From Alphaproteobacteria bacterium (GTDB lineage Bacteria > Pseudomonadota > Alphaproteobacteria > SP197), in assembly GCA_965200745.1 (NCBI GenBank), contig CBDAUZ010000002.1, positions 287,847-351,846 of the forward strand: 64,000 nt of DNA. The letters run 5' to 3'. The stretch's first letter is position 1, and the number at the start of each line of letters is the position of its first letter. A program made the translations under genes and the position numbers. Below the pieces are notes generated by a model. That model was given only the letters and a program-made list of their open reading frames with translations, made no database searches and was not told the DNA's origin. Positions 10,141 to 40,878 of this stretch are shown in pieces.

Positions 10141-10423
10141 GCTGTTCTGTCGCGAAACTGGTGGCGTCGCGACGTCCTCTCGCAAAGTCGCCCCTCTACA
10201 GTGTTCGGGCAACCCGGAAGCCGAGGCTGTCGCTGCTGGAGCCTGACGCACCCGCGGCCCGGTTCGGGGAGCGCAGGTCCTCCACGAAGCTGCGCCAGGA
10301 GCCGACGCACACGACGCAGTAGCCACATTCCTCCCTTCCTGCCGCCTTCACCCTTGGCGGCGTCCAGTAACTTCCGTCATCCGGTGCTCCAAGGCAGCTT
10401 CCGTGCCAGCAGTCCGTGGTCTG

Positions 10424-13401: not shown

Positions 13402-13406
13402 TCACC

Positions 13407-23087: not shown

Positions 23088-23121
23088 TCTGACAATCCGC
23101 TGACCACGACAAGTTCAAGAT

Positions 23122-23161
23122 ACACCGCCGCCTTCGCCATGATTTGCGAAGGCGGCGGTGT
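23122..23161 (+). terminator. Perfect 15 bp stem / 10 nt loop hairpin between the SBP and permease genes (intra-operon attenuator or mRNA-stabilising stem-loop)
   Basis: ACACCGCCGCCTTCG-CCATGATTTG-CGAAGGCGGCGGTGT. No T-tract follows. Confidence 0.45.
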
Positions 23162-23206
23162 GATGTGCTGCACGAATGAGCCTATTGCTCCGGTAAAGGC
23201 ACAATC

Positions 23207-24151: not shown

Positions 24152-24517
24152 TTGCCCGTGGAAAAGAACACGAAATCTTGCGGAACAGCGTCTTTCGCCC
24201 GCATGTGGGTGCCACTTGCGGAAGACATCGAAATGAGTGGAATCAACACAATGGTTCTGCTTTTTGAACGCGTATCCATCATCCGCCGGGGTCGTCGTAC
24301 CCATCGTCAAATTGGAATCGGTAGAAACGCTGCACACGGCGAGGAAGGCAGTCGCGCTTCTTGTAACCACAATGCACAGATCGTCAGATACGGTTGCGGG
24401 TGCCCCATTGGTGGATCAGGCTCCTGATGGGCGTCCCGGTCGTACGTACGACATTCGCTCACGCAGCGCGTCAGCCCATGATCGGATCATGGAAGCAGGC
24501 CGTTCACACGCGAACGC

Positions 24518-25423
24518 TTGATACTGAAAAATCACGCGTCGATGACTGAAAACCGGTCCGATCAATTGGTTCAGCAGAGGCAGCAGATGTCGTTGCTTGC
24601 CTTGACAAGAAAATCTTTCTCGGCGCTGGCTTTGTCGAGAAACGCATCCATTGGTGCTGTTGTGATCGCAGGCTGGATTTTCGTTGCAATCGCTGTCCCG
24701 GTCATCGCACCGTACTCACCGACCGATATTCTCGGATCGCGACTCCTGGATCCGTCTTTCGAACACTTGCTTGGAACGGACCATCTGGGACGGGATGTCC
24801 TGAGTCGACTGTTGTGGGGCACGCAGATCATACTGTTTCTTGCTCCCACTTCGGTCTTGCTCGGTGTCGCGATTGGCGCGCCCATGGGACTGGTTTCTGG
24901 CTACGTTGGCGGCAGGCTTGACTCGGTCATCATGCGCGCTGTCGATATTCTTCTGTCCTTCCCTACATTGCTGATCTACATCCTGATCGTGACAAGTATC
25001 GGATCTTCGGCTGCAATTGTTGTCATCGCCATTGCTTTGGGGTCTGTCCCGCCGATCACGCGAATCGTGCGAAGCCTCGTGCTGGACGAACGGACAAAGG
25101 ATTACGTAAGCGCTGCCCGGCTCCGCGGCGAGAAACGTCGATACATTCTCTTGCGCGAAATCTTGCCCAACGTAGTCGCGCCCATCATTGTCGACAGTTG
25201 CATTCGCGTTGGATATGCAATCATGGCAATAGGATCGCTTGGATTCCTGGGGCTCGGCATTCCGCCACCAACGCCGGATTGGGGAGGAATGATCAATGAA
25301 GGAAGGAAGTTCATCTTCAGTATGCCATGGATGGTCGTCGCGCCGGCAGCAGCACTGAGTTCGGTTGTCATCGGTCTCAACATGCTCGCGGACGGTCTGA
25401 GAGAAATCGGACAGAAGAGATAG
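24518..25423 (+). CDS. ABC transporter permease (DppC/OppC-like). The start may be at a downstream Met, for example 24542.
   Basis: Permease sequence with an EAA-like loop. A 366 bp gap separates it from the upstream permease. Confidence 0.85.
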   Translation: MILKNHASMTENRSDQLVQQRQQMSLLALTRKSFSALALSRNASIGAVVIAGWIFVAIAVPVIAPYSPTDILGSRLLDPSFEHLLGTDHLGRDVLSRLLWGTQIILFLAPTSVLLGVAIGAPMGLVSGYVGGRLDSVIMRAVDILLSFPTLLIYILIVTSIGSSAAIVVIAIALGSVPPITRIVRSLVLDERTKDYVSAARLRGEKRRYILLREILPNVVAPIIVDSCIRVGYAIMAIGSLGFLGLGIPPPTPDWGGMINEGRKFIFSMPWMVVAPAAALSSVVIGLNMLADGLREIGQKR

Positions 25424-25606
25424 AAAACGGAATGGAAAGAACTTGTTGCAGTTCGTGCATTCCGGTCGCACAGGTCGGCAACAGACTGCCGTGTGCCCTG
25501 CAATGATGATTCTGACGACCGAACCGGTCCCTGGACCAGTCGTCCGGTCCGCATTCCGTTTACCGCGTGCTCCTTGGCATTGCTGACTGAGCTTGAGGTT
25601 CCGGAA

Positions 25607-27703
25607 GTGGCCCTGACGACACATGAACCCATTCTCGAGGTGGCGAATCTCGAAGTTTCCTATTCAACACGGCACGGACTGGTGAAGGCGATCCGCAATG
25701 TATCCTTCGAAATAGCTTCCGGCGATTCACTGGGACTGGTTGGCGAATCCGGTTGCGGGAAGAGCACACTCGCCTTTGCGATCATGAGCCATGTGGCCAG
25801 AAATGCTTCGGTGACGGGCGGAAGTATTCGATTTTGTGGCGAGGACATGGTGCAGAAGAGCGTGCGCAGTCTGAACAGGATTCGCGGCAGCCGGATTGCC
25901 ATGATCTACCAGGATCCGGTTGCAGCCCTCAACCCGTCGCTTCTGATCGGTGTGCAGCTCTGCGAAGTGCTGACGCAGCATAATGCCATCAATCGTTCGG
26001 AAGCTTGGGATGCCTGCATTGCCATGCTGGAAAAGGTGAATATGCCAGACCCGCCGGCAGTCATGCGTCGCTACCGCCACCAGTTATCAGGAGGACAACT
26101 GCAACGCGCAGTGATTGCGATGGCATTGCTGGCCAATCCGGCGCTCCTCGTTCTGGACGAGCCGACCACAAGCCTTGATGTCACGGTCGAAGCGGGCATC
26201 CTGGATCTGATCGACGAATTGCGACGGGAATTGAACCTCTCGATCCTTTTTATCAGCCACAACCTTGGTGTAATCAGCAGAATTGCGGATCAAGTGGCGG
26301 TCATGTACTCGGGTGAGCTTGTCGAGCAGGGGCCTGTCCGTGATATTTTCCATAATCCTCAACATCCCTACACATCAGCACTGCTGAAATGTGTTCCGAG
26401 TATCGGCACAGGCAGGCAACCCTGGGCGCTGCACCCGATCAAGGGCCGTGTGCCCACTCTGCATGAATCGGCGCCGGGGTGTATCTTCGAGCCCCGGTGC
26501 GACAGAGCCGGCGACCGTTGCCGCAAGGAACATCCTGAGTTTCATAGAGCTGGCGAAAACCATGACGTGCGCTGTTTCTATGCCGGGACACCGACAGTTG
26601 CTGAACTGGCAACCGCGCAAGACGCACCGGGCAACGGAAACGTCGCAACAGGTTCAAACGATATTGTTCTCGATGTCGACGACCTCAAAACCTATTACAG
26701 GGCGCGCGGTAGCAGCTTCGGAATGTCGGGTGGCAACCGGAACAGGGGAATTGTCAAGGCGGTAGACGGTGTTTCATTCAAATCCCGAAAAGTCGAGATC
26801 GTCGGGATTGTTGGTGAATCCGGATGTGGCAAGTCGACACTTGCCAAGTGCATTGCAGGTCTTGAACCGCCCGACGGCGGCACGATGGAGTTCATCGGAG
26901 TCGACATCGCGCGGGGTGTCGAAAAGCGCCCGCAGGAGCTCATCAAGGAATTGCAGATGATCTTCCAGAATCCGGATTCAACACTGAATCCCAAGCGGAC
27001 TGTGAAGGATGCGATAGCGCGTCCGCTGAAGCTGTTCAATACGGTTCCTGCCAGTGAGATAACAGGGGAGGTTGTGCGGCTTCTCGATGCCGTGAAACTT
27101 GGCGAGACCTATCTGGATCGCCTGCCCAGACAGTTGAGCGGCGGCGAGAAACAACGGGTCGCGCTCGCAAGGGCATTCGCGGGGCGGCCATCACTTGTAC
27201 TATGTGACGAACCGCTCTCGTCTCTGGACGTCTCGGTTCAGACGGCCGTCATGAAACTTCTCCTCGAGTTTCAGAGCCGGTTCAAGACGACAATGCTGTT
27301 CATCTCGCATGACCTTGGTATCGTCTACCAACTCAGCGACATGGTCGCTGTGATGTATCTGGGACGAATTTGCGAGATCGGTCCTACAGAGGCGTTGTTT
27401 TCGCCACCCTATCACCCCTATACAGAGGCGTTGCTGTCTGCGGTTCCAATTCCTGACCCTCTCCTGGAGCAAACACGCATTCGGCTTTCAGGCAGTGTTC
27501 CCAGCGCGTTGAATCCACCGACAGGTTGTCGATTCCACACCCGCTGTCCGCGCAAGATCGGATCGATTTGCGAGAGAGAGCCGCCACCATGGCGACAAAT
27601 CGATGACAATCATTTCATTGGCTGCCACATCGACATGGACGAATTGCGTGCCATGCAGCCCGTGATCGGGACGATCAAATCCGGAGTTCAGGTCGATCGT
27701 TGA
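25607..27703 (+). CDS. ABC transporter ATP-binding protein with two fused ATPase domains (DppD-DppF fusion)
   Basis: Two Walker A motifs (GESGCGKST twice), two LSGG signatures, C-terminal oligopeptide-ABC Cys motif. Likely GTG start at 25607 (the ORF track extends to 25493). Confidence 0.88.
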   Translation: MALTTHEPILEVANLEVSYSTRHGLVKAIRNVSFEIASGDSLGLVGESGCGKSTLAFAIMSHVARNASVTGGSIRFCGEDMVQKSVRSLNRIRGSRIAMIYQDPVAALNPSLLIGVQLCEVLTQHNAINRSEAWDACIAMLEKVNMPDPPAVMRRYRHQLSGGQLQRAVIAMALLANPALLVLDEPTTSLDVTVEAGILDLIDELRRELNLSILFISHNLGVISRIADQVAVMYSGELVEQGPVRDIFHNPQHPYTSALLKCVPSIGTGRQPWALHPIKGRVPTLHESAPGCIFEPRCDRAGDRCRKEHPEFHRAGENHDVRCFYAGTPTVAELATAQDAPGNGNVATGSNDIVLDVDDLKTYYRARGSSFGMSGGNRNRGIVKAVDGVSFKSRKVEIVGIVGESGCGKSTLAKCIAGLEPPDGGTMEFIGVDIARGVEKRPQELIKELQMIFQNPDSTLNPKRTVKDAIARPLKLFNTVPASEITGEVVRLLDAVKLGETYLDRLPRQLSGGEKQRVALARAFAGRPSLVLCDEPLSSLDVSVQTAVMKLLLEFQSRFKTTMLFISHDLGIVYQLSDMVAVMYLGRICEIGPTEALFSPPYHPYTEALLSAVPIPDPLLEQTRIRLSGSVPSALNPPTGCRFHTRCPRKIGSICEREPPPWRQIDDNHFIGCHIDMDELRAMQPVIGTIKSGVQVDR

Positions 27704-27799
27704 ATCCCTTGCGCGACGCAACGGATTGGAATCCAGTCTTGATTTCCGCATGGACGATGAGCGGAAGGCCGACGGGTGCCTGTTTCTCGTCGAATGTCG

Positions 27800-28627
27800 T
27801 CATTCGTACCATCCTGTGGTCGACGTGCGAAGCGTCCGGAACTGCTTCATGTCATGGCCACACCAGACTTGTGCCTGAAGTTGTTGGGCGCGTTGGCGGA
27901 TCTTTGAGACGGTCCCGGCGGCTCGGGAAGGTGACAGGGAGTATCCGGCGGGACGGTATGGCGGCCCGAAGTTTTCGAGCGTAAACACGGCATCGGAAGC
28001 GAGTATTACATGTCCGGTTTCCGGCATGCAGATACTCAGACCCAGCATTCCAGCAGCGTGTCCCGCGTTCCAATTCAGTAACGTGATCGAGTTCGTCAGC
28101 CTGATCTCCGTGTCCTCTTCCTCGACAAGACACCATTCAAGTTCTTTCGTCAGCCACTGTGCCGTGTCCTTCCAGGCATAGGAACTGTCCGGATCCCGGC
28201 GGGCATGGTATGCGAGCGCCGTATCGCGTTCCGCGCGGTGAACAATGATCCGGGATTTTTCGAAAAACTCGACGCAACCTGCGTGATCGGAATGCATATG
28301 TGACAGGACAACCCTGTCAATATCATCGGGCCCGATTCCCAGTTGCTCGAGACGGTTTGGTAGATGGCAATCCTCGCCGTCGGGTCCGGCAAACCAGGGA
28401 TAGGAACGCTTGAACGACTCGGACCAGCGACCATTATCATTCATGGCAGCCGGATGGCATCCGGTATCGTAGAGCGTTCGACCATCCATCTCTTCGATCA
28501 GGTATCCAAGAATTGGGCAGATCATTCGTCCGCTGGATTCCGGATCAGCTTCCGCGAGATCGCCGAAAATCACGGCATTGTCCAGTTCCATACGACCAAG
28601 ATCGAGGACGAACAACCGGTTTCGCAC
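27800..28627 (-). CDS. MBL-fold metallo-hydrolase, N-acyl-homoserine-lactonase-like
   Basis: HxHxDH motif (LSHMHSDHAG). Size and N-terminus are typical of AHL lactonases. Confidence 0.75.
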   Translation of the reverse strand: MRNRLFVLDLGRMELDNAVIFGDLAEADPESSGRMICPILGYLIEEMDGRTLYDTGCHPAAMNDNGRWSESFKRSYPWFAGPDGEDCHLPNRLEQLGIGPDDIDRVVLSHMHSDHAGCVEFFEKSRIIVHRAERDTALAYHARRDPDSSYAWKDTAQWLTKELEWCLVEEEDTEIRLTNSITLLNWNAGHAAGMLGLSICMPETGHVILASDAVFTLENFGPPYRPAGYSLSPSRAAGTVSKIRQRAQQLQAQVWCGHDMKQFRTLRTSTTGWYE

Positions 28628-28662
28628 AGTGTAACTCCTTCAACAGATTGCGCGATCTGACG

Positions 28663-29943
28663 CTACGCGTCAGCCCGTGACTTCCAACCGTACCAGAGCG
28701 TTCTGGCCCGAACGCCAATTCCCAGGAAAGGCTGTGGCGGCAACAAGGACGGCCGCGAAAGTGTGCGAACATCATCGATCAGCGTTGATTCCGACCCCAT
28801 CGCGTACTCGGCGAGCAGTCTTCCGGAAATTGTTCCGCGTGCCAGCCCGACACCGCAATACCCAAGGGAGACAAAGACCCCGGGATCCAGGGAACCGAAA
28901 TGTGATGCCCAGTTACGGGTCATGCAAAAAACGCCAGCCCATGTTTGCTCGAACTGGAGAGTTCGCAATCCGGGATATCTCTTCAGCAGTATCTCCTTGT
29001 GCTTCTTTCGGAGTCGCTGCCGTTGATCGTCGGTGAGGCGAAACTGGTTCGAGTAGTATGTCCCGTAACGGACGAGCATGCGGTTGGACAGGGTTCGACG
29101 CATCGTCGTCGTACCGGTAATGCCCCATTCTGCGCTGCCGCCCACTGTGTCCTGTTCCTCATCGGTCATCGGTCGCGAGAGACTCGCACAGGCGATCATC
29201 GGGAAGACGAGGCGGCGAAGAAAGCCGAGTCTTGAGATAAACGCATTGGTTGTCAGCAGGACGTTCCCGGTCGTTACGCTGGCGTCCGTGCATTCAATTC
29301 GTACGGGTGAACCCGGTTCAACACGGCGTACAGATGTCTGTTCGCAGACTTCCACATTTTCGGGCAACGACTGGCCCAGTCCACGGCACAGGGCTGCGGG
29401 ATTCAGAAGAACTGTGCCGGGAGTCAGGATCGCAGCGCGATAGTATCCGGTACCGGTTATTGTTTTCAGAGTACTGCGGTCATACCAGACGTACTTGTTT
29501 TCCGAACCTTCCAGGAGTTTCCTGGTGTTGTTCAGGTGCTTTTCCCGTTCGGCCGTTACAACGGCTGTCAAGTGCCCGATTGGTGACCAATCGCATTCAA
29601 TCACATGTTTCCGAACGCAATCTTCCAGATGTTCACGCCCGGCTACGATCAACCGGGTAATTCGCCTGTTCTCTTCAGCGTTCAGATGTTCTGTGAGGTG
29701 CGGTGTGTCAATGACAAAACCGGCATTTCGACCAGAGGAACCGTATCCGATCTGATGCTCGTCAATCAGCAGAATACGCGCGTTCGGATCGAGTTCACCC
29801 AGTCTTCGTGCAGCAGCAAGACCGGTAACGCCGGCACCGACGACGACCCAGTCGGCCTTGTGTTCGCCCTTCAGACGACGCGGCTCTTCCGGTGTCGGGA
29901 GAACAGAATACCACCCGGATGCATGTCTTGTGTCGTCAGACAT
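28663..29943 (-). CDS. FAD-dependent oxidoreductase (DAO family, amine / gamma-glutamylputrescine oxidase-like)
   Basis: N-terminal dinucleotide-binding motif DWVVVGAGVTGLAAARRL, DAO-family length. Confidence 0.8.
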   Translation of the reverse strand: MSDDTRHASGWYSVLPTPEEPRRLKGEHKADWVVVGAGVTGLAAARRLGELDPNARILLIDEHQIGYGSSGRNAGFVIDTPHLTEHLNAEENRRITRLIVAGREHLEDCVRKHVIECDWSPIGHLTAVVTAEREKHLNNTRKLLEGSENKYVWYDRSTLKTITGTGYYRAAILTPGTVLLNPAALCRGLGQSLPENVEVCEQTSVRRVEPGSPVRIECTDASVTTGNVLLTTNAFISRLGFLRRLVFPMIACASLSRPMTDEEQDTVGGSAEWGITGTTTMRRTLSNRMLVRYGTYYSNQFRLTDDQRQRLRKKHKEILLKRYPGLRTLQFEQTWAGVFCMTRNWASHFGSLDPGVFVSLGYCGVGLARGTISGRLLAEYAMGSESTLIDDVRTLSRPSLLPPQPFLGIGVRARTLWYGWKSRADA

Positions 29944-29990: not shown

Positions 29991-30839
29991 TCATCCGAAA
30001 TCGAGATCTCGCAGGCTTTGGTGGACGTCTTTCGGGGCGACCGCAACATAGCGTGCCATGTTGTGTATGCTTGCATCACCGCCAATGCCGTATTCGGCGT
30101 CGTATCCATAGTCGTCATCATCATCGTTTTCGGTTCCAACACCACCTTCGTTTCCGGCCAGAAACACAACGCGGGTCTGCGGTTGCTTCGGATTGATCCG
30201 GTTGTAGGGGTGCCAGTTTCCCATGACCTTTGTCTTGTGCCTCGCCTGCGCCTTGTCGAGATATGCCGCAAGGGGTTCGACACCCCCTGCACGCGCAATC
30301 AGGTTTGGTTCGTCGCGCAGCACTTCAAAGGTGTCAAAGCCACGTGTGGACTTCCTCGCCAATTCATAATCGAGAACAACACCGTAACGCCGCGGAAGCC
30401 CGGATACGCCGGATTTGAATTCTTCAAACGGATAGATCGGAATCTCGGTATGATCCGGCAACCTGCCGTTCAGTAGATCGGCGGCTTCCTTGGCCGAGAT
30501 CTTGGCGGCGTATTGCCCGGTGTATCCGTCGTTGTTGTGCCGATTGACGTCTGCACGGTACGTTCTCTCAAATCGTTCTGGCGAGGCGAAGATTCCACCA
30601 CCGTGAACAACAACAATGACAATGTTCCCCCCCGGTGAGGTGACGACATTCTCTTCCGTGAATGATGTGAACCACGTGTTCCAGATTATGTTGTCGTAGG
30701 GCGCGTGTGTGCGGGCGTGAAGCAGTTGCGGCAAGGATGCCACAAATCCGTCCTCTCCCGCATACTCCAGAGCCATTCGCAACGCGTTGGGAACATGTGA
30801 GTCAAATACGATCTGTGCTTCCATCTCAATGTCATGCAT
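29991..30839 (-). CDS. Conserved hypothetical protein, paralog A of a tandem pair (function unknown)
   Basis: 282 aa, about 50-55% identical to the upstream paralog. Shared motifs include ALEYAG.DGFVAS.PQLLHAR, VIVVVHGGGIF and NPARYVAVAP. Confidence 0.7.
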   Translation of the reverse strand: MHDIEMEAQIVFDSHVPNALRMALEYAGEDGFVASLPQLLHARTHAPYDNIIWNTWFTSFTEENVVTSPGGNIVIVVVHGGGIFASPERFERTYRADVNRHNNDGYTGQYAAKISAKEAADLLNGRLPDHTEIPIYPFEEFKSGVSGLPRRYGVVLDYELARKSTRGFDTFEVLRDEPNLIARAGGVEPLAAYLDKAQARHKTKVMGNWHPYNRINPKQPQTRVVFLAGNEGGVGTENDDDDDYGYDAEYGIGGDASIHNMARYVAVAPKDVHQSLRDLDFG

Positions 30840-30868: not shown

Positions 30869-31789
30869 TCAGGTTCCGAACGAGAGATGGCGCACACCGG
30901 TCAACGGGCGTTGCGGTGCGACAGCAACATAGCGCGCCGGATTGATCATCGCCGTATCGCCACGGATCGCAAACTCTGCCTCGAGGGGCATGCGGTAATG
31001 TGTGGTCCAGGTGCCAGCGTAAGCCTGTTCGACCTTCGATAGTGGGCGGAACACGTCATTTTGGGGGCCACCTTCCTGACCACCAAGGAACAGTATTCTT
31101 GCCTGTTCTTCATCCGGGTCTATTTCGTTGAAATTGTGCCAGCTTCCCATCACCTCCGCAGTCCTTCGATCCCGGGCCCGATCCAGGTACAGCGACGCAG
31201 CTTCAACTCCACCCGCTCGCGCAATCATGAGAGGATCGTCCTTCAGTCGGTCAAATCTCACGTTACCGGAACAGGAGTCCCGTGCCGTTTCGAAATCCAG
31301 AATGGTGGCGTAACGATATGGCAATTTCCCCTCCTTGTCCTTGAATTCCTTGAAGGTGAAAACCGGTATCTCACGGTTGTCAGCGAGCTTGCCTTCCAGC
31401 AGGTCACGCGCTTCGACATCGCGAATTCTGGCGGCGAACAGGCCCGTAAACCCGATCTCGGAGTGACGGCTGGTACTCGCATGATAGAGGGCCCTGAATC
31501 TCTCGGGTGTCGAAAAAATTCCACCGCCGTGTACGACGACGATCACGTGATTGCCGTGTCGAGTCCGGATCACGTTCTCTTCACTGGTAGAAGTGAAGAA
31601 TCGGGTATTCCAGATTTCGTTATCATATGGGGCTCTGGACCGCGCGTGGAGAAGTTGCGGCATTGACGCCACAAACCCATCGTTACCTGCGTACTCCAGC
31701 GCACACCTGAGTGCTTCAGGTAAATACGAATCGAAGAAGACCGAGGCCTCCATACGCGATTGATCCATTTCGTCGTGCCTTGTTTCCAT
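30869..31789 (-). CDS. Conserved hypothetical protein, paralog B of the tandem pair (function unknown)
   Basis: 306 aa. Same conserved blocks as paralog A. Confidence 0.7.
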   Translation of the reverse strand: METRHDEMDQSRMEASVFFDSYLPEALRCALEYAGNDGFVASMPQLLHARSRAPYDNEIWNTRFFTSTSEENVIRTRHGNHVIVVVHGGGIFSTPERFRALYHASTSRHSEIGFTGLFAARIRDVEARDLLEGKLADNREIPVFTFKEFKDKEGKLPYRYATILDFETARDSCSGNVRFDRLKDDPLMIARAGGVEAASLYLDRARDRRTAEVMGSWHNFNEIDPDEEQARILFLGGQEGGPQNDVFRPLSKVEQAYAGTWTTHYRMPLEAEFAIRGDTAMINPARYVAVAPQRPLTGVRHLSFGT

Positions 31790-32046
31790 GTTGACCTGGG
31801 TCCCCTTGGGCTTTCAATTTGCCACACTCACTTTCGTTTCATGTTTGTTTTTCCTTCAACGATTATCAATCCATCACTTCTTTCATTGCCTGGGATCCGA
31901 TCACGATGGTTCCCGACAATCAACTTGAGACTCACTGTCATACAAGATGAGACGGTGGCGTCGCGTGCAGGGGATCGACTGAAGCAATCTGATTGAGCCG
32001 CAAACCGGTCAAGCAATCAGTCTTCCAGATGAACAGCGATCAATTC

Positions 32047-32066
32047 TTGATTGACTGATCAATCTA
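32047..32066. promoter_or_regulatory. Near-palindrome TTGATTGA-CTGA-TCAATCTA in the divergent intergenic region (candidate TetR-type or other repressor operator)
   Basis: 8 bp inverted arms (7/8 match) with a 4 bp spacer, lying within 120 bp of the hypB-like start. Several TGATCA motifs surround it. Confidence 0.3.
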
Positions 32067-32165
32067 TGATCACAATGAAATGAACTGATCGTGTCGAATC
32101 CGTACAAACGGCGTCTGATGCAGCCATGGCTGCAGATCTTCAGGAACCGGGGTACCGAATGAGAA

Positions 32166-33020
32166 ATGGGGTGTTTCCAGATGTGCAACGTGTGCGGTTG
32201 TGGCGAAATGCAGACCAAGATTGATGCAACGGATCCCCTCCACACGCACACCCAGCACCATCACTTTGGTCAGAATGCCGCCGGGGTCAGCGTCGCCGGT
32301 CTCGATGATGCACAACTGATCACGATTGAAGAGAACATACTCTCGAAGAACGACCAATATGCCGACATCAACAGACGTCGCCTGGCCAATCACCACATCT
32401 TCGCCCTGAATCTGGTATCGAGTCCTGGTGCCGGAAAAACGTCGCTCCTGGTCGAAACAGTCAAGGCGCTCTCGTCAGAAGTACCGTGCGCGGTCATCGA
32501 AGGGGATCAGGAAACGGCCTGCGATGCAGACCGAATTCGCGCGACCGGTGTAACGGCTGTCCAGATCAACACAGGCCGGGGCTGCCACCTCGATGCGCAC
32601 ATGGTTGGACACGCACTGGATGATCTCGATCTGGTATCCGGTGGAGTCCTGTTCATCGAAAACGTAGGGAACCTCGTTTGCCCGGCGCCCTTTGACCTGG
32701 GAGAATCCGGAAAGGTCGTCATTCTCTCGGTCACGGAAGGGGACGACAAACCACTCAAGTATCCCGACATGTTCGCCGCCGCCAAACTCATGGTGCTCAG
32801 CAAGGTCGATCTCCTGCCATACGTCGATTTTGATACCGACAAGGCTGTCGAACGGGCGCGACGCATCAATCCGGATCTGGAAATTCTGCAGGTTTCGCTG
32901 CGTGACGGAACCGGAATGACAGACTGGCTGCACTGGATATCAGAAGGTCGAAACAGGATGGCGGAACCGCCTCATCCCGACGGGACCCTGGTATCAGAAG
33001 GTCTGGAAACGCATGCATGA
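32166..33020 (+). CDS. hypB: HypB-like metallochaperone GTPase (nickel incorporation protein family; GhaB-like)
   Basis: N-terminal MCNVCGCG Cys motif and His-rich stretch HTHTQHHH, GTPase P-loop [17 protein letters not shown]-class G domain. Confidence 0.85.
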
Positions 33021-33432
33021 ACTGGCACTCGCACGCAGCCTGATCGAACTGGTCGACGATTATTCTGCCCATCATGGCGGGCGCGAGGTTCGGCGAATTC
33101 ACGTTCGTCTCGGACAGTTGTCCGCCATGACACGGGCGCTTTACTTCTGCTTCGGTTCTGCATCTCGCGGAACATGTTGCGATGGCGCCATGCTCGAGAT
33201 CGAAGAAGTGCCGCTGACCGTGAATTGTCGGACATGCCAGGCCGTCAAGACACCGAGTGGTCGTTACAACTTTCGTTGTCCTGATTGCGGAATGCCGACG
33301 CCAGAAGTCGTAACGGGACGGGAAATGCAGCTTACCTCCATAGAATTGGGGCCTGCGGGATCTGGCAAACGCGTCGGAACCGCCATCACCGAACCGACAA
33401 ATGGAGAGCTGTATGCCAACGGATCTCCCTGA
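33013..33432 (+). CDS. hypA: HypA-like nickel insertion protein (GhaA-like)
   Basis: [11 protein letters not shown]-terminus (the Ni-binding MHE motif) and a CxxC...CxxC zinc site. Overlaps the hypB stop. Confidence 0.85.
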
Positions 33433-34492
33433 AACCTGGGACTTCGTTCCCCATCAGCACCGTGGTCCGCATCGCGAAACTGCACCGGACGCACATATCA
33501 GGTCGCCGAGCAAGCACAATGGACCGTTCAAGGCACCGGGTCTCCGCACTTTCATGGCTGCGCCCTATTGCGAACCTGACAGGGACAAGGTTCGCGCCGC
33601 CGGTGCGAAAATCTGTTTTCTCGGCGCGCCCTGGGATCAGGGAACAATCGTACGAACGGGAACGTCGAGCGGACCACAAGGTGTCCGTGAAGCCTCAACG
33701 CATTATTTCCCGTACATGTTCGAATATGACGTTGACCTCATGTCTTTCTTCAGGGTTGTTGATTGTGGCGACATACCGATCGTCCCGGCCAACAATGCAC
33801 TCTCGCAAGCCTACATGTGCGATTACGTCACCGAGTGTCTGGAAGGCGGCGCCAAGGTAATACTCGTCGGCGGTGATCATTCGGTACCTATCCCCGGAGC
33901 GCGTGCTCTCTCCCGGTATCTGGACCGACACAAGCCCGAAGCGAAGATGGGCTACCTCCACATTGACTGTCACCTCGACGCTGCAGTCGATTGGGGAGGA
34001 ATCGAAATCACGAATGCATCCGGACCTCCCGAAGCGTTGAAACTGTCCAATTGCAATGCAGCCAACATGGCGCACATGGGCTCGCGCAACGGTCTCAATC
34101 CCAAGGACTGGATGGATTTCTGGATCGATAATGACATGCCGATCATTCCCATGTCGGCGATCGTTGAACGTGGGATCGAGCCCTGCACACGATTCATCTT
34201 CGATCGCGCCTGGAACGGTACGGAAGCGGTCTATGTCTCCTGGGATACAGATTCACTGGATGCAAGCTGCATGCCAGGAACAAGTTGTCCCGAGTGCTAT
34301 GGCATCAAGGCACGCGAAGCCATTCAACTCGCGCGTATCGCCGGAGAATACGGTGCCGACGTGCTTGAACTGGCCGAGCTTTCTCCGGTTTTTGATACCA
34401 GCCAGATCAGCACCAAGCTCGCCTGCAACCTGATTTATCACTTTCTCGGAAGTCGCGCGTCGACACTGCGCAGTCAAGGCAGACAGCCGTGA
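33401..34492 (+). CDS. Arginase/agmatinase-family ureohydrolase with intact metal ligands. Candidate Ni-dependent guanidine or guanidino-compound hydrolase.
   Basis: GGDHS, D-C-H-L-D (DxHxD) and SWDTDSLD motifs are present. Sits immediately downstream of the hypB/hypA-like genes. Confidence 0.8.
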   Translation: MESCMPTDLPETWDFVPHQHRGPHRETAPDAHIRSPSKHNGPFKAPGLRTFMAAPYCEPDRDKVRAAGAKICFLGAPWDQGTIVRTGTSSGPQGVREASTHYFPYMFEYDVDLMSFFRVVDCGDIPIVPANNALSQAYMCDYVTECLEGGAKVILVGGDHSVPIPGARALSRYLDRHKPEAKMGYLHIDCHLDAAVDWGGIEITNASGPPEALKLSNCNAANMAHMGSRNGLNPKDWMDFWIDNDMPIIPMSAIVERGIEPCTRFIFDRAWNGTEAVYVSWDTDSLDASCMPGTSCPECYGIKAREAIQLARIAGEYGADVLELAELSPVFDTSQISTKLACNLIYHFLGSRASTLRSQGRQP

Positions 34493-34547
34493 CTCACGCG
34501 TGGCGGACGTCGCATCGGGGATGTGCGTTACCCTGGGAGGAAGTCGG

Positions 34548-35594
34548 ATGAACCCTGCAAAGGCCTTCTTGCACCTTTTTTCACCTCTGGGTGGTGACGA
34601 AGCGGACAACTATCGATCACCAGGCCAGATTTCGTTTTTGCGGGCGCCATATGTTTCGTTGAGCAAGGAAGCCTTGCAGCAGACCGACGCAAGCTATGCA
34701 TTTCTCGGCGCACCCTATGATGAAGGCAACGTTGGCAAGCCAGGCTGTGAGGATGGCTCACGCGAGTTTCGGGTCGCGTCGCTCGACTACTTTCCATACT
34801 GGTTCGAGTTCAATGTCGATCTGCATGGCCGTGCCGTTGACTGTGGCGACGTACAAATGCCGCGGGTCAACCCGACGGTGGCCCATCAGCGAATATACGC
34901 CGCCGTCCGTACAGTCCTGGACGCCGGTTTGACGCCGATCATCTGCGGCGGTGACCGATCGATCTCGATTCCGGCGTCAAGGGCCCTGTCTGACCATCTC
35001 GGTACCGAACGCAAGATGGGTTACATGCACCTGGGTGCACATCTCGATATGGCCGATTCCTGGGCCGGTGAGCAGAATGTCAGCACCTGTGCTCTCGCAC
35101 GGATCACCGAGCTGGAAAACCTGAACCCCCGCAACGTTGCCCACATCGGTGCCCGCAATTCCTTCAATCCCAAGGACCATGTCGATCTGGCCCGTCATCG
35201 GGGAATTCGTTTCCATCCCATGTTCGAGGTGCTGGAACGGGGTGTCGCAGATGTCATGGACGAAGCGTGTACACGGGTCTGGGATGGAACGGATGGCCAG
35301 TATCTGAGTTTCAATTTCAATGTCATGGACTCATCCGCCGCACCGGGCGTCACGGCCACCGAATCAGGCGGGTTTGAAGCCCGCGAAATCATGCAGGTGG
35401 CAGCCAGGGTTGCAGAGCACGGAGGCCCATCTGTTCTCGATGTCACGGAACTCTGTCCGATGTTCGATGTCAGCGGCCAGACATCCCGTATGGCTGTCTG
35501 TGTCATCCTCAGGATCATGGCAGGCATTGCAGCGAAGGACGGCCAGACAATCGATGAAACCATCCGCCGACCTGGTTGGATGCACGGCGGTTGA
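34548..35594 (+). CDS. Arginase-fold paralog with degenerate metal site (probable pseudo-enzyme or structural partner)
   Basis: GGDRS (His to Arg), GAHLD (first Asp to Gly), and SFNFNVMD (two Asp to Asn) at the metal-ligand positions. Strong RBS GGGAGGAAG before the ATG at 34548. Confidence 0.8.
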   Translation: MNPAKAFLHLFSPLGGDEADNYRSPGQISFLRAPYVSLSKEALQQTDASYAFLGAPYDEGNVGKPGCEDGSREFRVASLDYFPYWFEFNVDLHGRAVDCGDVQMPRVNPTVAHQRIYAAVRTVLDAGLTPIICGGDRSISIPASRALSDHLGTERKMGYMHLGAHLDMADSWAGEQNVSTCALARITELENLNPRNVAHIGARNSFNPKDHVDLARHRGIRFHPMFEVLERGVADVMDEACTRVWDGTDGQYLSFNFNVMDSSAAPGVTATESGGFEAREIMQVAARVAEHGGPSVLDVTELCPMFDVSGQTSRMAVCVILRIMAGIAAKDGQTIDETIRRPGWMHGG

Positions 35595-35665
35595 ACGGAA
35601 CGAAAAAGTGCCAGGCAGAAACAAGGGAACCGGATTCCAACCAACCTGAAGAGGGACATCGACAA

Positions 35666-36757
35666 ATGACGAAACCATCGCAACCGACCTGGAGTACAGT
35701 GAGCCGCCGCACCCTTCTTTCGGGTGCCGCCGGAATTGCCGCGACAACAGCCCTGTTGCCGCGGTACGCACGCGCCGAAGGCGAACTCAATGTTCTCGTG
35801 TGGTGCGATCACGCCGATACAAAACTTCTCGAACCGTTCGAACAGGCACACGGCGTCAAGGTCAACGCCAAGACATATGAAGGGACCGGAACCGCACTGG
35901 CGATTCTCGAACAGTCTGCGCCGGGCGACTGGGACGTGATGGTGATCGATGCACCTGACGTCCCGCAAGTTGCCGACCTCGGTATTCTTGAAGAACTTCC
36001 CGAGGATATTGCCCCCTGGAACGATATTTTCCCGCAATTACGCGATGCGCCCTACACGCACGTCAACGGCAAGTCGTACGCAATTCCCGAAAAGTTCGGC
36101 TACTACGGCTTCTGCTACAACAAGGACGTGGTTGACCCGGCGGACGCCAGGCGCGGCGATATTGCCTGGAACGACAAGTACACGGGACGCATTGGTGTCT
36201 ACGACTACTATTTCCCGATCATCCAGATGATCGGGCTGTCCATGGGTCTCAAACCCGCGACGATCAAACGTGACGATCTCGGCGATATTCGCGAAAAACT
36301 CCTGGCCATGAAACCGAACGTCAAGATGGTCGGCGACATCGTCAGCGTCCAGAATGCACTGGTCACCGGATCGGTTGACGTGGTGGTCGGTGGCGCGGAG
36401 TTCACGGTATCCAATCTCATGCCGACAAATCCCGAACTTGACTGGGTTATCTCCGATGATGGTGGTCTGATCTGGAATCAGGGAATCGGTATCCTGAGCA
36501 GCAGTAACAGGAAGGAACTTGCTGCGGAGTTCGTCAAATGGATACTCAGCCCGAAAGGCCAGGGATTGCTGGCAACCTCCGAGTGCTTCTGGGCCATGCC
36601 CGCGAACGAGACCGCGGAACTCTCGACCGAAGAAAAGACAATCCTGCGGTGGGATGACCAGCCGGACTTTCTCGCGCGTTCGCAGGTGTCACTCCTTCCG
36701 GATCCGGAAATGGATGTGGAAATGCTCGATATCTGGACGGAGTTCCTGCAGGCCTGA
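35666..36757 (+). CDS. ABC transporter substrate-binding protein, PotD/PotF (polyamine) family, Tat signal
   Basis: SRRTLLSGAAGIAATTALLP twin-arginine signal, PotD-like length and sequence. Confidence 0.85.
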   Translation: MTKPSQPTWSTVSRRTLLSGAAGIAATTALLPRYARAEGELNVLVWCDHADTKLLEPFEQAHGVKVNAKTYEGTGTALAILEQSAPGDWDVMVIDAPDVPQVADLGILEELPEDIAPWNDIFPQLRDAPYTHVNGKSYAIPEKFGYYGFCYNKDVVDPADARRGDIAWNDKYTGRIGVYDYYFPIIQMIGLSMGLKPATIKRDDLGDIREKLLAMKPNVKMVGDIVSVQNALVTGSVDVVVGGAEFTVSNLMPTNPELDWVISDDGGLIWNQGIGILSSSNRKELAAEFVKWILSPKGQGLLATSECFWAMPANETAELSTEEKTILRWDDQPDFLARSQVSLLPDPEMDVEMLDIWTEFLQA

Positions 36758-36890
36758 GTTCACAGTTGATTCCGGCGGAGAGCAATACAGCCAGTATTCT
36801 TCACCTTTCGCGGCCACTGACTGATTACACCCCGCTGGACAGATCACACAGACAGGAAAGACCTGAGATATAGACCGGCGAAAGTACGCT

Positions 36891-37751
36891 TTGGGAGGGA
36901 GCGACAAATTCGGGGGTGTCTCCCTGACGCGATGGGCGATCTATCCAGCGCTGATTTTCTCGCTGCTGTTTTTCGTGACTCCGTTTTTGATCATGGTCGC
37001 CGTCGGATTCTGGCAGCGCCTGCGCGGACGACTCGAAGCAACCTGGACATTCGCCAACTACGAAAAATTCCTTACGCGGGACTACCTCGTCGAGGCACTT
37101 TTCAATTCGATAGAAGTAACGGTGCTGACAACGGTCATCAGCATTCTGGTCGCGTACCCGCTGGCATACATACTGGCCTACCGCATATCGCTGCGCTGGC
37201 AGAAAATTGTTCTCGTTTTCGCGGTGTTGCCATTCTGGACCGCCTATGTCGTGCGTTCCTACAGTTGGCTTCTCGTGCTGTCGGACACGGGCATCATCAA
37301 TTCAAGCCTGTTGTCGATCGCACTGATCAGCGAACCGCTGACGCTGGCTTACACGCGTGGCGCAACGATCCTCGGTTTTGTCCACTTCTTCACCATGCTC
37401 CTGACGCTGACCATTTACGCGAGTCTGATCCAGATCCCGCGCTCACTTCGCGATGCGGCTTCAGATCTGGGTGCAACCGGATTTCAGGTGTTCCTCAGGA
37501 TAACCCTGCCCCTCAGCATTCCAGGCGTGGCTGTCGGTGCCTTCCTGACGTTTGTCATCACGATTGGTGACTACATCACACCCCAGATCCTCGGTGGCAA
37601 CACGGAGGTCCTTATTCCGCAGGCCATCATGCTGCAGATCTCCCGCTCTGCGAACTTTCCGATGGCCTCTGTCATGAGTGTCACCCTCATGATCGTGGTC
37701 GTCTGCGTCTATTTCGCATCCGCGCGCTATCTGAAGATGGATCGAATCTGA
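36891..37751 (+). CDS. ABC transporter permease (PotB-like)
   Basis: 6-TM permease with an EAA-loop region. Confidence 0.85.
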   Translation: MGGSDKFGGVSLTRWAIYPALIFSLLFFVTPFLIMVAVGFWQRLRGRLEATWTFANYEKFLTRDYLVEALFNSIEVTVLTTVISILVAYPLAYILAYRISLRWQKIVLVFAVLPFWTAYVVRSYSWLLVLSDTGIINSSLLSIALISEPLTLAYTRGATILGFVHFFTMLLTLTIYASLIQIPRSLRDAASDLGATGFQVFLRITLPLSIPGVAVGAFLTFVITIGDYITPQILGGNTEVLIPQAIMLQISRSANFPMASVMSVTLMIVVVCVYFASARYLKMDRI

Positions 37752-38542
37752 TGAGCCGCCTGATCGGTAACATGACCGTGAGTGGTTATCTGTTGCTGGC
37801 GCTCGGATTTATCTATCTGCCCGTCGTTATCCTCGTGCTCTTCTCGTTCCAGAACGGGGACTTGCCTGTCCCACCCTTTGATGGTCCGGGCTTGCGCTGG
37901 TATGCCAAGCTGTTCGCCAATGAGCGTCTCCTCGACGCCCTCGTCAACTCCGTGGCCGTCGCGGTGCTTTCAGCACTCGTCACGACAATTCTGGGATTTC
38001 TGGCCGCCTACAGCCTGTCCAGAACCCCGGTCAAATTCCCGGGCACAGCGCGCTTCCTGCTGATTGCTCCGATCACGGTATCCTATCTGATTATCGGGAT
38101 GGGATTGTTGACGACCTTCAATGTTGTTGGCATCTCGAAGTCGCTGTTCGCGGTCGGCATTGGCCATGTTGTCATCAATCTGCCCCTGGCTTTCGCTATC
38201 ATCTATTCGCAGATGAGCGATCACCACAAGAACATCGATGCCGCTGCACACGATCTGGGCGCCAGCGATCTCCAGACCATCATCCTGGTTTCCCTGCCGA
38301 TGATGAAGGTGCCACTGCTTGCAGCGTTCTGCCTTTCTGCAACTCTCTCCTGGGACGAGTTCATCGTCGCTTTCCTGCTCAGCCGATTTGAAGTGACTCT
38401 ACCCGTCATCATTTTCGAAATGTTGCGTGCCGGTCTTACACCCGAAGTGAATGCTGCCGGAACCGTCGTCTTTGCCATTTCCATGAGCATCATCCTGATC
38501 GCCGCCGTCACTCTTCTGTTCAGACGCGGAGACGGACGATGA
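37751..38542 (+). CDS. ABC transporter permease (PotC-like)
   Basis: Permease sequence. Start overlaps the upstream stop. Confidence 0.85.
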   Translation: MSRLIGNMTVSGYLLLALGFIYLPVVILVLFSFQNGDLPVPPFDGPGLRWYAKLFANERLLDALVNSVAVAVLSALVTTILGFLAAYSLSRTPVKFPGTARFLLIAPITVSYLIIGMGLLTTFNVVGISKSLFAVGIGHVVINLPLAFAIIYSQMSDHHKNIDAAAHDLGASDLQTIILVSLPMMKVPLLAAFCLSATLSWDEFIVAFLLSRFEVTLPVIIFEMLRAGLTPEVNAAGTVVFAISMSIILIAAVTLLFRRGDGR

Positions 38543-39609
38543 GCCAACCGCTGGTCAGATTGCACGACGTTCGCAAGGTCTATGGCAATCTGGTCGCACT
38601 CGACAATGTGAATCTGGCTATAGACCAGGGACAGTTCGTTGTTCTTCTCGGACCGTCCGGAAGCGGCAAGACGACGCTGCTCTCGATACTCGGCGGATTC
38701 ACGACACCGACATCCGGTCGGGTCATGATTGACGGTCAGGATGTGACATCGACTCCCCCTGCGCGACGCCCGACAGTCACGGTCTTCCAGGATTACGCCC
38801 TGTTTCCGCACATGAGTGTTCGCGACAACATCGGGTTCGGGCTTGCGATGCGCAAGGTGTCCAGATCCGCGCGCTACCGACGCGTGGAAGAGGTTCTGGC
38901 CACAGTCGGTCTCGAAGGCCTCGGCGAAAGAAAAATTCACCAGCTTTCAGGCGGTCAGCGCCAGCGCGTTGCCTTGGCCCGGGCCATTGTGGTTGAACCC
39001 GCGGTCCTGTTGCTCGATGAACCCCTGGGTGCTCTTGATCTGAAGATCAGGCAGCAAATGCAGGAGGAACTGGTTCAGATCCAGCGGCGAATTGCAACAA
39101 CATTCGTACACGTCACCCACGACCAGGACGAGGCCATGAACATCGGTGATATCGTCGTCGTGATCAACAATGGCTCCATAGAGGACGTCGGTCCGCCTGA
39201 GCGGGTTTACCTCAGGCCAGCCAGCCTGTTCACCGCCAGATTCATGGGTGACAGCAACATCCTTTCCGGCAAGGCAATTTCGGGGAACAGTGAACTAACA
39301 GCAATCGAAACCGCTCTCGGGTTTCTGACTGTTCGTGGTTGCGCCGAGACCGGATCAACGGCGCATCTGTCCGTCAGACCAGAGCACATCAGAGTGGGTT
39401 CTTCGGATCAGGAAGACATGATTTCGCTGGGCGAGGTCATCATCCAGGATATCGTGTTTCAAGGCGCACATCGGCGATGCCATGCCCGTTCCGGAACCAG
39501 TCAGGAGATCGAACTGTTGTTGCGTCTGCCAGCAGAGCAGTCGTTGACTCCGGGGGAAACCGTTCCCGTTCATGTACGGGCGCACGATCTTGTCCTGTTG
39601 CAAGACTGA
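38539..39609 (+). CDS. ABC transporter ATP-binding protein (PotA-like, with C-terminal TOBE/regulatory domain)
   Basis: Walker A GPSGSGKTT, LSGGQRQRVALARA, Walker B LLLDEP. Confidence 0.9.
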   Translation: MSQPLVRLHDVRKVYGNLVALDNVNLAIDQGQFVVLLGPSGSGKTTLLSILGGFTTPTSGRVMIDGQDVTSTPPARRPTVTVFQDYALFPHMSVRDNIGFGLAMRKVSRSARYRRVEEVLATVGLEGLGERKIHQLSGGQRQRVALARAIVVEPAVLLLDEPLGALDLKIRQQMQEELVQIQRRIATTFVHVTHDQDEAMNIGDIVVVINNGSIEDVGPPERVYLRPASLFTARFMGDSNILSGKAISGNSELTAIETALGFLTVRGCAETGSTAHLSVRPEHIRVGSSDQEDMISLGEVIIQDIVFQGAHRRCHARSGTSQEIELLLRLPAEQSLTPGETVPVHVRAHDLVLLQD

Positions 39610-39675
39610 TCGTGTCGTGGATTCCCTATCCATCCGTCTGCGAGCATTGCGGACCAGCGTGAGAGCCGCATAACG

Positions 39676-40323
39676 ATGCCTGACAACCGGTCACGAAAGA
39701 GAAATGCCCGGGCGGATGCCGTACTGGAGGTTGCTCTCGATCTCTTCTCTACCAAGGGCTATGCCGAAGTCACGATGCAGGAAATCGCACTGCGTGCAGA
39801 TACCACCTATTCCCTTGTGTACTACTACTACAAGAACAAGGAGGACCTGTTTCACGCAGCGGTGTCCTATGCGGTCGATCAGGCAATCGAGAACTACAAC
39901 CGGATCAACGCGGAGAAACACGCGTCACCGGTCGAACTGATCAACAATTGGCTCGAGAACAACATTACCTATTCGGAACCGCTCAAACGTGCTGTCAAGA
40001 TCATGTTCGAGTACTCTGACAAACGTGACGAATCGCCGTCCGTCGCAAGCGACATTGAATACTTCTACATGATCGAACGAAAGCTTCTGACCGACGGAAT
40101 ACGTCTCGGCGTGGAACAGGGTGTGTTCACATGTCATTCACCGGAAGACATTGCAGCATTTGTTTCGACCCACATCGACGGCATTTTCTATGGTGCCCTG
40201 GTTCGTCCCGAGCTGGACATCGAAACGGCAATGCAAGAACTCAGATCCATCCTGTGGCAGCTTCTCCGGTTTCAGCCTGAATCGTGCAGTCGGAACCGGT
40301 GTTCCCCGGAAACAGACAACTGA
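39676..40323 (+). CDS. TetR/AcrR family transcriptional regulator
   Basis: N-terminal HTH: LEVALDLFSTKGYAEVTMQEIALRADTTYSLVYYYYKNKEDLF. Confidence 0.85.
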   Translation: MPDNRSRKRNARADAVLEVALDLFSTKGYAEVTMQEIALRADTTYSLVYYYYKNKEDLFHAAVSYAVDQAIENYNRINAEKHASPVELINNWLENNITYSEPLKRAVKIMFEYSDKRDESPSVASDIEYFYMIERKLLTDGIRLGVEQGVFTCHSPEDIAAFVSTHIDGIFYGALVRPELDIETAMQELRSILWQLLRFQPESCSRNRCSPETDN

Positions 40324-40395
40324 GTGGCACGACAACCATGACTCATCGATTATCCTGCATGGGGCCGGAACAGGACGGTCAAGGGAGAACCTGCC

Positions 40396-40878
40396 ATGTG
40401 TAACGGATTGACGCATCTTGATCGTGACGGACGTGCGCGAATGGTTGACGTCTCGGCAAAGGACCGGACTGACCGAACCGCTGTAGCCGTTGGCAGAATC
40501 TTCATGCAACCGACAACACTCCGGGAAATCGCAAAAGGGTCGATCCCCAAGGGTGATGTGTTTGCTGTTGCCCGCATCGCCGGCATCATGGCGGCGAAAA
40601 ACACGGCAAACATGATTCCGCTGTGTCACCCTCTGAGTCTCTCGTCAGTGAAGGTCGAACTTGCAGCCAACGAGACCGATTCCTGTGTCGATATTTCCGC
40701 GACATGCAGCGTGAGCGACCGAACCGGCGTGGAAATGGAATCACTTGCTGCCGTTTCGATTGCTGCGCTGACAATCTACGACATGTGCAAGGCAATCGAC
40801 CGCGACATGGTTATCGGTGATGTTTGTCTGGTTGAAAAGCGCGGAGGCCGGACGGGAAGCTGGCAGCGCGAACGATGA
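40396..40878 (+). CDS. moaC: Cyclic pyranopterin monophosphate synthase
   Basis: MoaC sequence ([19 protein letters not shown]...). RBS AAGGGAGAA. Confidence 0.9.

Follow-up and report, generated by a model that had tools for sequence, protein, structure and literature searches.

The locus described here lies at positions 32166–40323 of a 64,000-nucleotide (nt) stretch of alphaproteobacterial DNA (contig CBDAUZ010000002.1), the whole of which is referred to below as the window. It consists of nine head-to-tail genes on the + strand, whose neighbours either overlap or are separated by gaps of at most 133 nt in the map of open reading frames (ORFs). A hypB-type gene for a nickel-binding GTPase (32166–33020; Pfam PF02492, E 7e-22) and a hypA-type gene for a nickel metallochaperone (33013–33432; PF01155, E 8.5e-28) come first, followed by two genes matching the Pfam Arginase family (E 4e-49 and E 2e-56), which we refer to as alpha (33413–34492) and beta (34548–35594). 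The remaining genes specify a putative ATP-binding cassette (ABC) importer and a regulator: a periplasmic binding protein resembling PotD/PotF (35666–36757, 363 amino acids (aa); SBP_bac_8, E 3e-22), a PotB-like permease (36891–37751) and a PotC-like permease (37751–38542), both with the BPD_transp_1 domain, a PotA-like ATPase (38539–39609; ABC_tran, E 9e-39, and TOBE_2) and a TetR-family protein (39676–40323; TetR_N, E 4.5e-15). The Pfam scan covered nearly all of the window's large ORFs; the cassette genes were also compared with NCBIfam, where the permeases and ATPase matched PotB (E 8e-47), PotC (E 1e-42) and PotA (E 4e-102), each under its cutoff. An earlier note, made from the DNA letters alone, had described this layout, and the scans bear it out: hypB- and hypA-like genes stand directly before two arginase-fold genes, an ABC importer and a TetR regulator lie downstream, and no urease or hydrogenase genes were found among nearly all of the large ORFs of the window.

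Both arginase-fold products are most similar to metformin hydrolase, each to a different subunit. In a search of PDB sequences alpha matched subunit A (8snf, 8snk, 8x3g, 8ryi) with E 9e-166 and 555 bits, and beta matched subunit B (8ryi_C) with E 4e-159 and 533 bits, whereas the crossed comparisons scored low (201 bits for alpha with MfmB, 209 bits for beta with MfmA). Other PDB scores were 162 and 140 bits for the guanidine hydrolase GdmH (7esr, 7oi1), approximately 75–97 bits for GbuA, GpuA and PAH, and 64–74 bits for Escherichia coli agmatinase. Counted on alignments, identity is 64.8% between alpha and MfmA (8snf) and 63.5% between beta and MfmB (8ryi_C), and the two window proteins are 35% identical to each other. 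On conserved blocks alpha shares 69% of residues with Hyphomicrobium DmgH-alpha, 67% with both DmgH-alpha and MefH-alpha of Aminobacter, and 34% with GdmH. At the DNA level, the block comprising hypB, hypA, alpha and beta aligns to the metformin plasmid of Pseudomonas mendocina at 67% identity over 76% of the query. The alpha ORF opens at 33401; its start was placed at 33413 (359 aa) because homologue lengths and independent gene calls agree, and in independent assemblies gene calling yields exactly this protein, at 359 aa. The beta ORF opens at 34500, and homology to MfmB places the start at 34548, giving a protein of 348 aa as in two of three gene calls.

The two subunits differ sharply in their predicted metal sites. 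Alpha keeps all six metal ligands (H158, D183, H185, D187, D276 and D278) along with N199, W192 and E320; the HDHDDD ligand pattern, with N199 in place of the arginase catalytic His, recurs in all 42 members of the subclade alignment described below. The corresponding ligand positions of beta are R, G, H, D, N and N, so that four of six are substituted, and beta cannot therefore be expected to act as an independent hydrolase. What beta does retain are the cap residues Y22 and F82 and an N-terminal MNPAK...DNYR loop, with 18 of the first 23 residues the same as in MfmB. This corresponds closely to the published definition of the MefH/MfmAB/MetCaCb–DmgH family: an alpha2beta4 heterohexamer whose catalytic alpha subunit carries six His/Asp ligands for two nickel ions, with Asn199 replacing the catalytic His, and which needs the adjoining hypA and hypB for activity (PMC11399263, PMC11271267, PMC10927577). 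Beta subunits of the family have lost three to five ligands (PMC11271267), and their N-terminal loop (Y22, F82) caps the alpha pocket, which W192 of alpha closes. The window enzyme displays every one of the defining features that can be read from a sequence, so that both the family assignment and the architecture are strongly supported. On these sequence grounds the two arginase-fold genes are the alpha subunit and the beta subunit of a single heteromeric MefH/DmgH-type enzyme; the earlier note had treated them as two hydrolases, although its remark that just one of the ureohydrolases is intact agrees with the degenerate metal site of beta. Public annotations label the homologues ‘agmatinase’, a pervasive mis-annotation which the locus corrects, and to recognise two arginase-fold genes as one enzyme matters for the inference of nitrogen cycling from metagenomes.

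The chaperone genes are well defined. HypB scored 289 bits against the NCBIfam equivalog TIGR00073 (cutoff 121) and HypA 91.1 bits against TIGR00100 (cutoff 88.1). The HypB translation contains an N-terminal MCNVCGCG (with the CxxCGC motif), the His-rich stretch HTHTQHHH, a P-loop GAGKTS, GCH and ENVGNLVCP; HypA starts with MHE and carries two CxxC motifs, CRTC and CPDC. The motifs named for both genes in the earlier note, and the GTPase nature of the first, are thereby confirmed. The CxxCGC motif of MCNVCGCG agrees with what we take to be the N-terminus of E. coli HypB, and the true start of hypB is therefore probably 32181. In the 41 related loci of the subclade introduced below, hypB adjoins alpha and beta in 36 and hypA is present in 40. 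Related enzymes require nickel and co-expressed HypAB, and in the metformin degrader that carries MetCaCb a knockout of metAB (hypAB) abolishes growth on metformin, metAB being needed for MetCaCb in vivo.

Alpha is set apart from its characterised relatives by residues at and around the substrate pocket. MefH (C / N-S-A) is told apart from the DmgH of Aminobacter (S / S-T-S) by position 184 and the triad at 288–290, and the tested Hyphomicrobium DmgH (HVZ03923) reads C / T-T-A in the source alignment (PMC11399263). The window alpha reads C184 / T288-S289-C290, together with T80 and A200, and so lacks the metformin hydrolase signature (C184 with N288-S289-A290; PMC11399263, PMC10927577). Among 93 database representatives, 47 were C/TTA, 22 were C/TSC (with a further two C/TTC) and 13 were S- or A-/STS. 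Out of 144 genome hits, 80 loci were retained for comparison, and 41 of these were C/TSC or C/TTC; these 41 loci form the gene-neighbourhood set, and 42 alpha sequences the alignment, of what we call the TSC subclade. In a neighbour-joining tree with 100 bootstraps the TSC clade was recovered in 89% of replicates, rising to 100% when its sister P0027 was included, and the whole alpha family in 92%; the remaining sequences were monophyletic in only 5% of replicates, and the clade may be sister to the TTA lineages or nested among them.

Several substitutions are fixed in the TSC clade and differ in at least 85% of other sequences (Q80T, C200A, P190V, T289S, H134Q, R241P, C154V and D29A), as is an insertion of four residues after approximately residue 172. 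Position 290 is Cys within the clade and Ala or Ser elsewhere. T80 and A200 are present in all 42 members. Other lineages have Q or N at position 80, and of the 38 TTA/STS loci compared 36 have C200, although A200 also occurs in three of the basal lineages. The polarity of the change at position 80 is ambiguous: Chloroflexi and GdmH have T, and the basal lineages N. Of the nine strict subclade positions, three coincide with pocket residues from a literature set of ten (hypergeometric P ~0.001). Q81 and C201 in MfmA numbering are two of five ‘close-homologue-specific’ pocket residues, and their substitution damaged MfmAB (PMC10927577).

Three papers of 2024, with crystal structures, describe the family, and TSC-type sequences already stand in the alignments of two of the groups (Oceanospirillaceae MDC1507598, Rhodospirillales MBT3556734 and MBT4039827), so that the system is better documented than the earlier note had supposed. 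None of the published tested homologues is of TSC type. Sinn et al. tested enzymes from Aminobacter and Hyphomicrobium (PMC11399263), and the enzymes assayed by Li et al. were Ac, which shares 93.8% identity with MetCa, Hm (MBN8913611, C/TTA) and Rs (MBT3556719), a C/TTA type with N80 (PMC11271267); the Hm, Rs and Hyphomicrobium pairs are all C/TTA. New here are the signature that defines the subclade, the near-invariant association of the subclade with a PotD-like importer, a candidate operator for TetR and the pattern of paralog coexistence. The titles of TSC locus records name marine taxa or carry marine-sounding labels (Arenicellales, Candidatus Poriferihabitaceae, Alphaproteobacteria bins, ‘OC6_3000m’, ‘MAG_seacave’), and the subclade is widespread, mostly in marine metagenome-assembled genomes. 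Several of the taxa are, we presume, sponge-associated; our literature search found no paper joining sponge symbionts, agmatinase and guanidine.

Comparison by tblastn across the 80 related loci showed that the cassette is conserved as a unit. Each gene of the series hypB, hypA, alpha, beta, binding protein, permease, permease and ATPase was present in 36–41 of the 41 TSC loci (the binding protein in 39), and a TetR homologue in 20. Clustering of ORFs across the 41 subclade loci yielded no conserved partners beyond the nine genes, and surroundings were unrelated between loci; the genes upstream of the cassette in the window (a metallo-beta-lactamase-fold protein, a DAO-type oxidoreductase and two paralogs) recurred at none of the 80. 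The binding-protein ORF opens at 35576, with a called start at 35666, and has a twin-arginine translocation (Tat)-type SRRTLL signal; the mature form would begin at approximately residue 38 of the 363. Like PotABCD and PotFGHI, the importer has ABC architecture and a binding protein of the SBP_bac_8 fold family; unlike theirs, the binding protein is remote in sequence (E ~1e-15) and bears a Tat signal. The imported ligand is presumably a guanidine compound and not a polyamine. Most TTA and STS loci are without a PotD-like transporter.

At least seven of the 41 TSC-bearing assemblies also hold a TTA-type locus, a count that is a lower bound because 80 of the 144 hits were retained, and none holds two TSC loci. 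In one such genome the TTA locus L054, on the same chromosome as the TSC locus L003, has an NMT1-type ABC system 5′ of alpha and beta, urease structural genes 3′ and no hypAB of its own. Many TTA-type loci are without their own hypA and hypB, among them L054 (7827–14569), L047, L048, L051, L052, L058, L066 and L070. Since the TSC hypAB is the only pair near either enzyme in genomes that hold both, the chaperones may be shared between the TSC and TTA enzymes of one genome.

A candidate site for regulation precedes the cassette. The 16-bp palindrome GATTGACTGATCAATC (32049–32064), 101 nt 5′ of the hypB ORF start, matches GATTGACNNGTCAATC at 13 of 14 positions and is the sole match in the window with one mismatch or fewer. 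A GAyTGAyNNrTCArTC-like palindrome (at least 10/14) was present 5′ of hypB in 14 of 16 TSC loci that contain TetR and in none of 16 that lack it (Fisher p 5e-7), and in shuffled controls 10/14 was rarely reached and 11 never exceeded. The stretch 32039–32064 resembles two overlapping palindromes, GATCAAttcTTGATtG and GATTGACTGATCAATC, and additional GATTGA and TCAATC half-sites lie at approximately 31989 and 32012. The palindrome at 32049–32064 is thus a good candidate for the operator of the operon's own TetR, its binding being suggested by this co-variation. No guanidine riboswitch was found in an Rfam search of the window at gathering thresholds or in a permissive search of 31750–32250.

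Taken together, these features make it likely that 32166–40323 is a single operon of approximately 8.2 kb whose products import and hydrolyse a small, cationic, N-substituted guanidine. In such a scheme the PotABCD-like importer, with its Tat-exported binding protein, would bring a guanidine compound into the cell, where the heteromeric arginase-fold enzyme, probably alpha2beta4 by homology, would split it into urea and an amine. Alpha would bear the dinuclear metal centre, into which HypB, as the GTPase, and HypA would load nickel, and beta would play a structural part, its N-terminal loop forming a cap over the active site of alpha. TetR would probably repress the operon at 32049–32064 for as long as the substrate, or a ligand related to it, is absent. 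Nickel dependence, stoichiometry, substrate and the ligands of transporter and regulator are all predicted by analogy. As substrate class we favour the methylated or alkylated guanidines, for instance 1,1-dimethylguanidine, the parsimonious choice because two divergent tested relatives use it; given the altered pocket and the coexistence with urease-linked DmgH-type paralogs, a different natural guanidine is nearly as likely.

Three other accounts of the cassette, all of which we consider very improbable, would place it outside this family or this function. The earlier note had taken Synechocystis GdmH with GhaA/GhaB (sll1077–1079; 7esr/7oi1) as its model, which would make the enzyme a hydrolase of free guanidine with GhaA/GhaB-like chaperones and the two arginase-fold genes separate hydrolases. 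GdmH is a nickel-dependent member of the same superfamily with the same logic of HypA/HypB-assisted nickel loading, is the next-best characterised PDB relative after MefH, and has T80 in common with alpha; that part of the model, the nickel-loading logic, is by analogy well taken. The family is not: GdmH is approximately 34% identical, against 65–69% for MefH and DmgH (162 bits against 555 for MfmA), and is the product of a single gene, a homomer acting on free guanidine only, unlike the predicted alpha/beta heteromer with its capped pocket and a beta that has lost four of six ligands. Guanidine is not hydrolysed by MefH or DmgH, and the riboswitch searches of the window were negative; among all compounds tried, the tested relatives hydrolysed only 1,1-dimethylguanidine and metformin (PMC11399263), which also speaks against the guanidino acids that the note had proposed. 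No more credible is an agmatinase or polyamine module, in which agmatine or a polyamine would be imported and the enzyme would release putrescine and urea. The public ‘agmatinase’ labels and the similarity of the transporter parts to PotA/B/C/D speak for it; yet alpha and beta both failed the agmatinase equivalog TIGR01230, with approximately 116 bits each (116.5 bits against 174.3), NF002564 gave 112 bits against 302, and alpha scored 74 bits with E. coli SpeB against 555 with MfmA and has N199 in place of the arginase/agmatinase catalytic His, as in MefH. Moreover, relatives hydrolysed only metformin and dimethylguanidine among the guanidine compounds of Sinn et al., in Tassoulas et al. agmatinase appears as a homologue of its own, with agmatine as its substrate (PMC10927577), dedicated nickel chaperones are no feature of manganese agmatinases, and all Pot matches fell far under the equivalog cutoffs. 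It is equally hard to believe that hypB and hypA work mainly for a [NiFe]-hydrogenase or a urease encoded in another part of the genome, their place next to alpha being a matter of chance. Both proteins exceed hydrogenase-type equivalog cutoffs and hypB DNA is approximately 70% identical to hydrogenase hypB of rhizobia and Cupriavidus, but the order hypB-hypA-alpha-beta is kept in 36–40 of 41 subclade loci and on metformin plasmids, the chaperone genes overlap their operon neighbours, no hydrogenase or urease genes were found among nearly all large ORFs of the window, and MetCaCb function in vivo depends on metAB. The broader proposal of the earlier note, a nickel-chaperone-coupled arginase-fold locus for a guanidine-type compound and not for hydrogenase or urease maturation, is supported.

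Harder to decide is what the TSC enzyme does within its family. It may be a plain DmgH orthologue, converting 1,1-dimethylguanidine to dimethylamine and urea as in Aminobacter and Hyphomicrobium, with the subclade differences due to neutral drift, an account to which we give slightly less than an even chance. Alternatively, and just as tentatively, the TSC subclade is functionally distinct, mainly marine and possibly host-associated, hydrolysing a natural guanidine other than 1,1-dimethylguanidine that enters by its own PotD-like importer, and working beside the urease-linked DmgH-type paralog of the same genomes. Two tested DmgH enzymes with the triads S/STS and C/TTA, approximately 70–72% identical, both cleave dimethylguanidine and not metformin (PMC11399263), so variation in the triad need not change the substrate, and the neighbour-joining tree does not place the TSC clade outside the TTA grade. 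Drift alone sits poorly with T for Q80 and with A200, mostly C elsewhere, in 42 of 42 members, both being pocket positions at which substitution was deleterious in MfmA, or with the fixed four-residue insertion. The assemblies that combine a TSC locus with a urease-linked TTA locus, set against none with two TSC loci, fit divided labour better than redundancy, and dimethylamine-catabolic genes, like those for urease, were not found among nearly all large ORFs of the window.

A number of observations weigh against the operon as drawn or against a distinct substrate. Nickel dependence, stoichiometry and substrate are extrapolated from relatives 63–69% identical, and HypB is canonical by NCBIfam, so that it may have a second role for a hydrogenase beyond the 64-kb window. 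The binding protein is distant from characterised polyamine binders (best PDB matches PotD/PotF, E 1e-15), and a homologous PotD-like transporter with TetR stands upstream at three S/STS loci (L059, L061 and L069), which resemble Aminobacter DmgH; the transporter alone is therefore no argument for a new substrate, and its presence there favours the dimethylguanidine reading. Pairs of STS and TTA loci likewise occur in two assemblies (VFKA01 and JAJFHL01), and both of these types are DmgH in vitro. There is no nearby urease in the window to use up the predicted urea. Finally, transcription signals do not delimit the operon: a scan of 31700–40500 for consensus promoters and terminators gave nothing above shuffled expectation and is for that reason uninformative.

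Set beside the systems already described, the locus combines familiar and distinctive traits. It shares with the metformin hydrolases MfmAB/MefH/MetCaCb of P. mendocina and Aminobacter (8snf, 8ryi, 8x3g) the order hypB-hypA-alpha-beta, the six alpha ligands with N199, W192 and E320, the degenerate beta with its Y22/F82 cap, and C184 and S289. It departs from them (N288-S289-A290) in its T-S-C triad, in T for Q80 and A for C200, and in the four-residue insertion. Metformin loci also carry a hupE/ureJ nickel importer and a codB/NCS1 transporter and lie on plasmids or a transposon, whereas the window has the PotABCD-like importer and TetR instead, at a locus set among core genes of the chromosome. 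Across all known metformin hydrolases mutual identity exceeds 97% (PMC10927577), against 65% for the window enzyme. DmgH (Aminobacter niigataensis DSM 7050, S184/STS; Hyphomicrobium sp. SMAG_U6089, HVZ03923/4, C184/TTA) is likewise heteromeric, accompanied by the chaperone pair, chromosomal and environmentally widespread, and is the likely functional analogue, turning a small alkylguanidine into urea and an amine; on dimethylguanidine its KM is approximately 2.6 mM and its kcat approximately 0.9 per s. The window enzyme differs from DmgH (Q80, C200) in belonging to a separate, well-supported subclade with T80, A200, S289, C290 and the insertion. Urease and an NMT1-type ABC system are the typical companions of DmgH-type loci, as at L054, and a PotD-like importer, with or without TetR, that of the TSC subclade.

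The family was discovered only through metformin pollution. DmgH, presumed to be its ancestor, has dimethylguanidine as substrate, and the natural source of that compound ‘remained elusive’ (PMC12508155, PMC11399263); no importers for guanidines have been studied so far (PMC12508155). Were the distinct-substrate reading true, the substrate would reveal a natural role for a family known only from metformin and from a compound without a known natural source, and the cassette would supply the first defined importer and regulator for such guanidine compounds. With its dedicated importer of high-affinity type and, in many loci, a TetR whose operator is recognisable, it offers three independent handles on the physiological substrate (screening of binding-protein ligands, de-repression of TetR and enzyme assays), and hence a tractable route to the natural substrate and role of DmgH-like enzymes.

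The window flanks consist of core chromosomal genes: trpEGDC, moaC-moeA-lexA-gltX-gltA and lpxBIAD, along with bamA, rseP, dxr, cdsA, uppS, frr, pyrH, tsf and rpsB. A plasmid origin was considered and rejected, as the top PLSDB match, the P. mendocina metformin plasmid, reaches 67% identity only and the window holds these core genes. Between trpC (4870–5679) and moaC-moeA-lexA (40396 onward) lie approximately 35 kb of variable genes (5680–40395), encoding a Rieske oxygenase, a probable defence island, a DUF3500 protein, an Opp-type ABC system and the hydrolase cassette. The trpC and moaC-moeA genes are neighbours in many alphaproteobacteria, and the whole of 5680–40395 could therefore represent a hot spot for insertions, as would be expected had the cassette been acquired horizontally.

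Within this variable stretch, an island on the + strand (9052–17148) has a GC content of 0.60–0.62, against approximately 0.55 elsewhere. It encodes a protein with an HSDR_N domain, a weakly SspD-like protein of 588 aa, a DndA/SspA-type cysteine desulfurase (E 5e-141), a PDC-M33A-like protein of 675 aa (E 9e-35), a weakly PDC-M33B-like protein of 288 aa and a DUF6339 protein, and it probably serves DNA phosphorothioation or, as a candidate, defence against phages. At 21441–29943 lies an ABC system of the Opp/Dpp/Nik family (an SBP_bac_5 binding protein, a pair of permeases and a fused double ATPase), after which the opposite strand encodes the metallo-beta-lactamase-fold protein and the DAO-type FAD oxidoreductase. 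Divergent from hypB are two tandem paralogs on the − strand (29991–30839 and 30869–31789; 282 and 306 aa, 51% identical), for which no Pfam or PADLOC match was found; the sole lead comes from the PDB, where the N-terminal part weakly matches AvpA (5ioo, E 1.5e-9), and a search for the template and variable repeats of a diversity-generating retroelement at these paralogs found none. Two Rieske-type oxygenase alpha subunits, each with Rieske and Ring_hydroxyl_A domains and without an adjoining beta subunit, are encoded on the − strand at 6917–8245 and 46362–47507; the arrangement recalls N-demethylating monooxygenases for quaternary amines.

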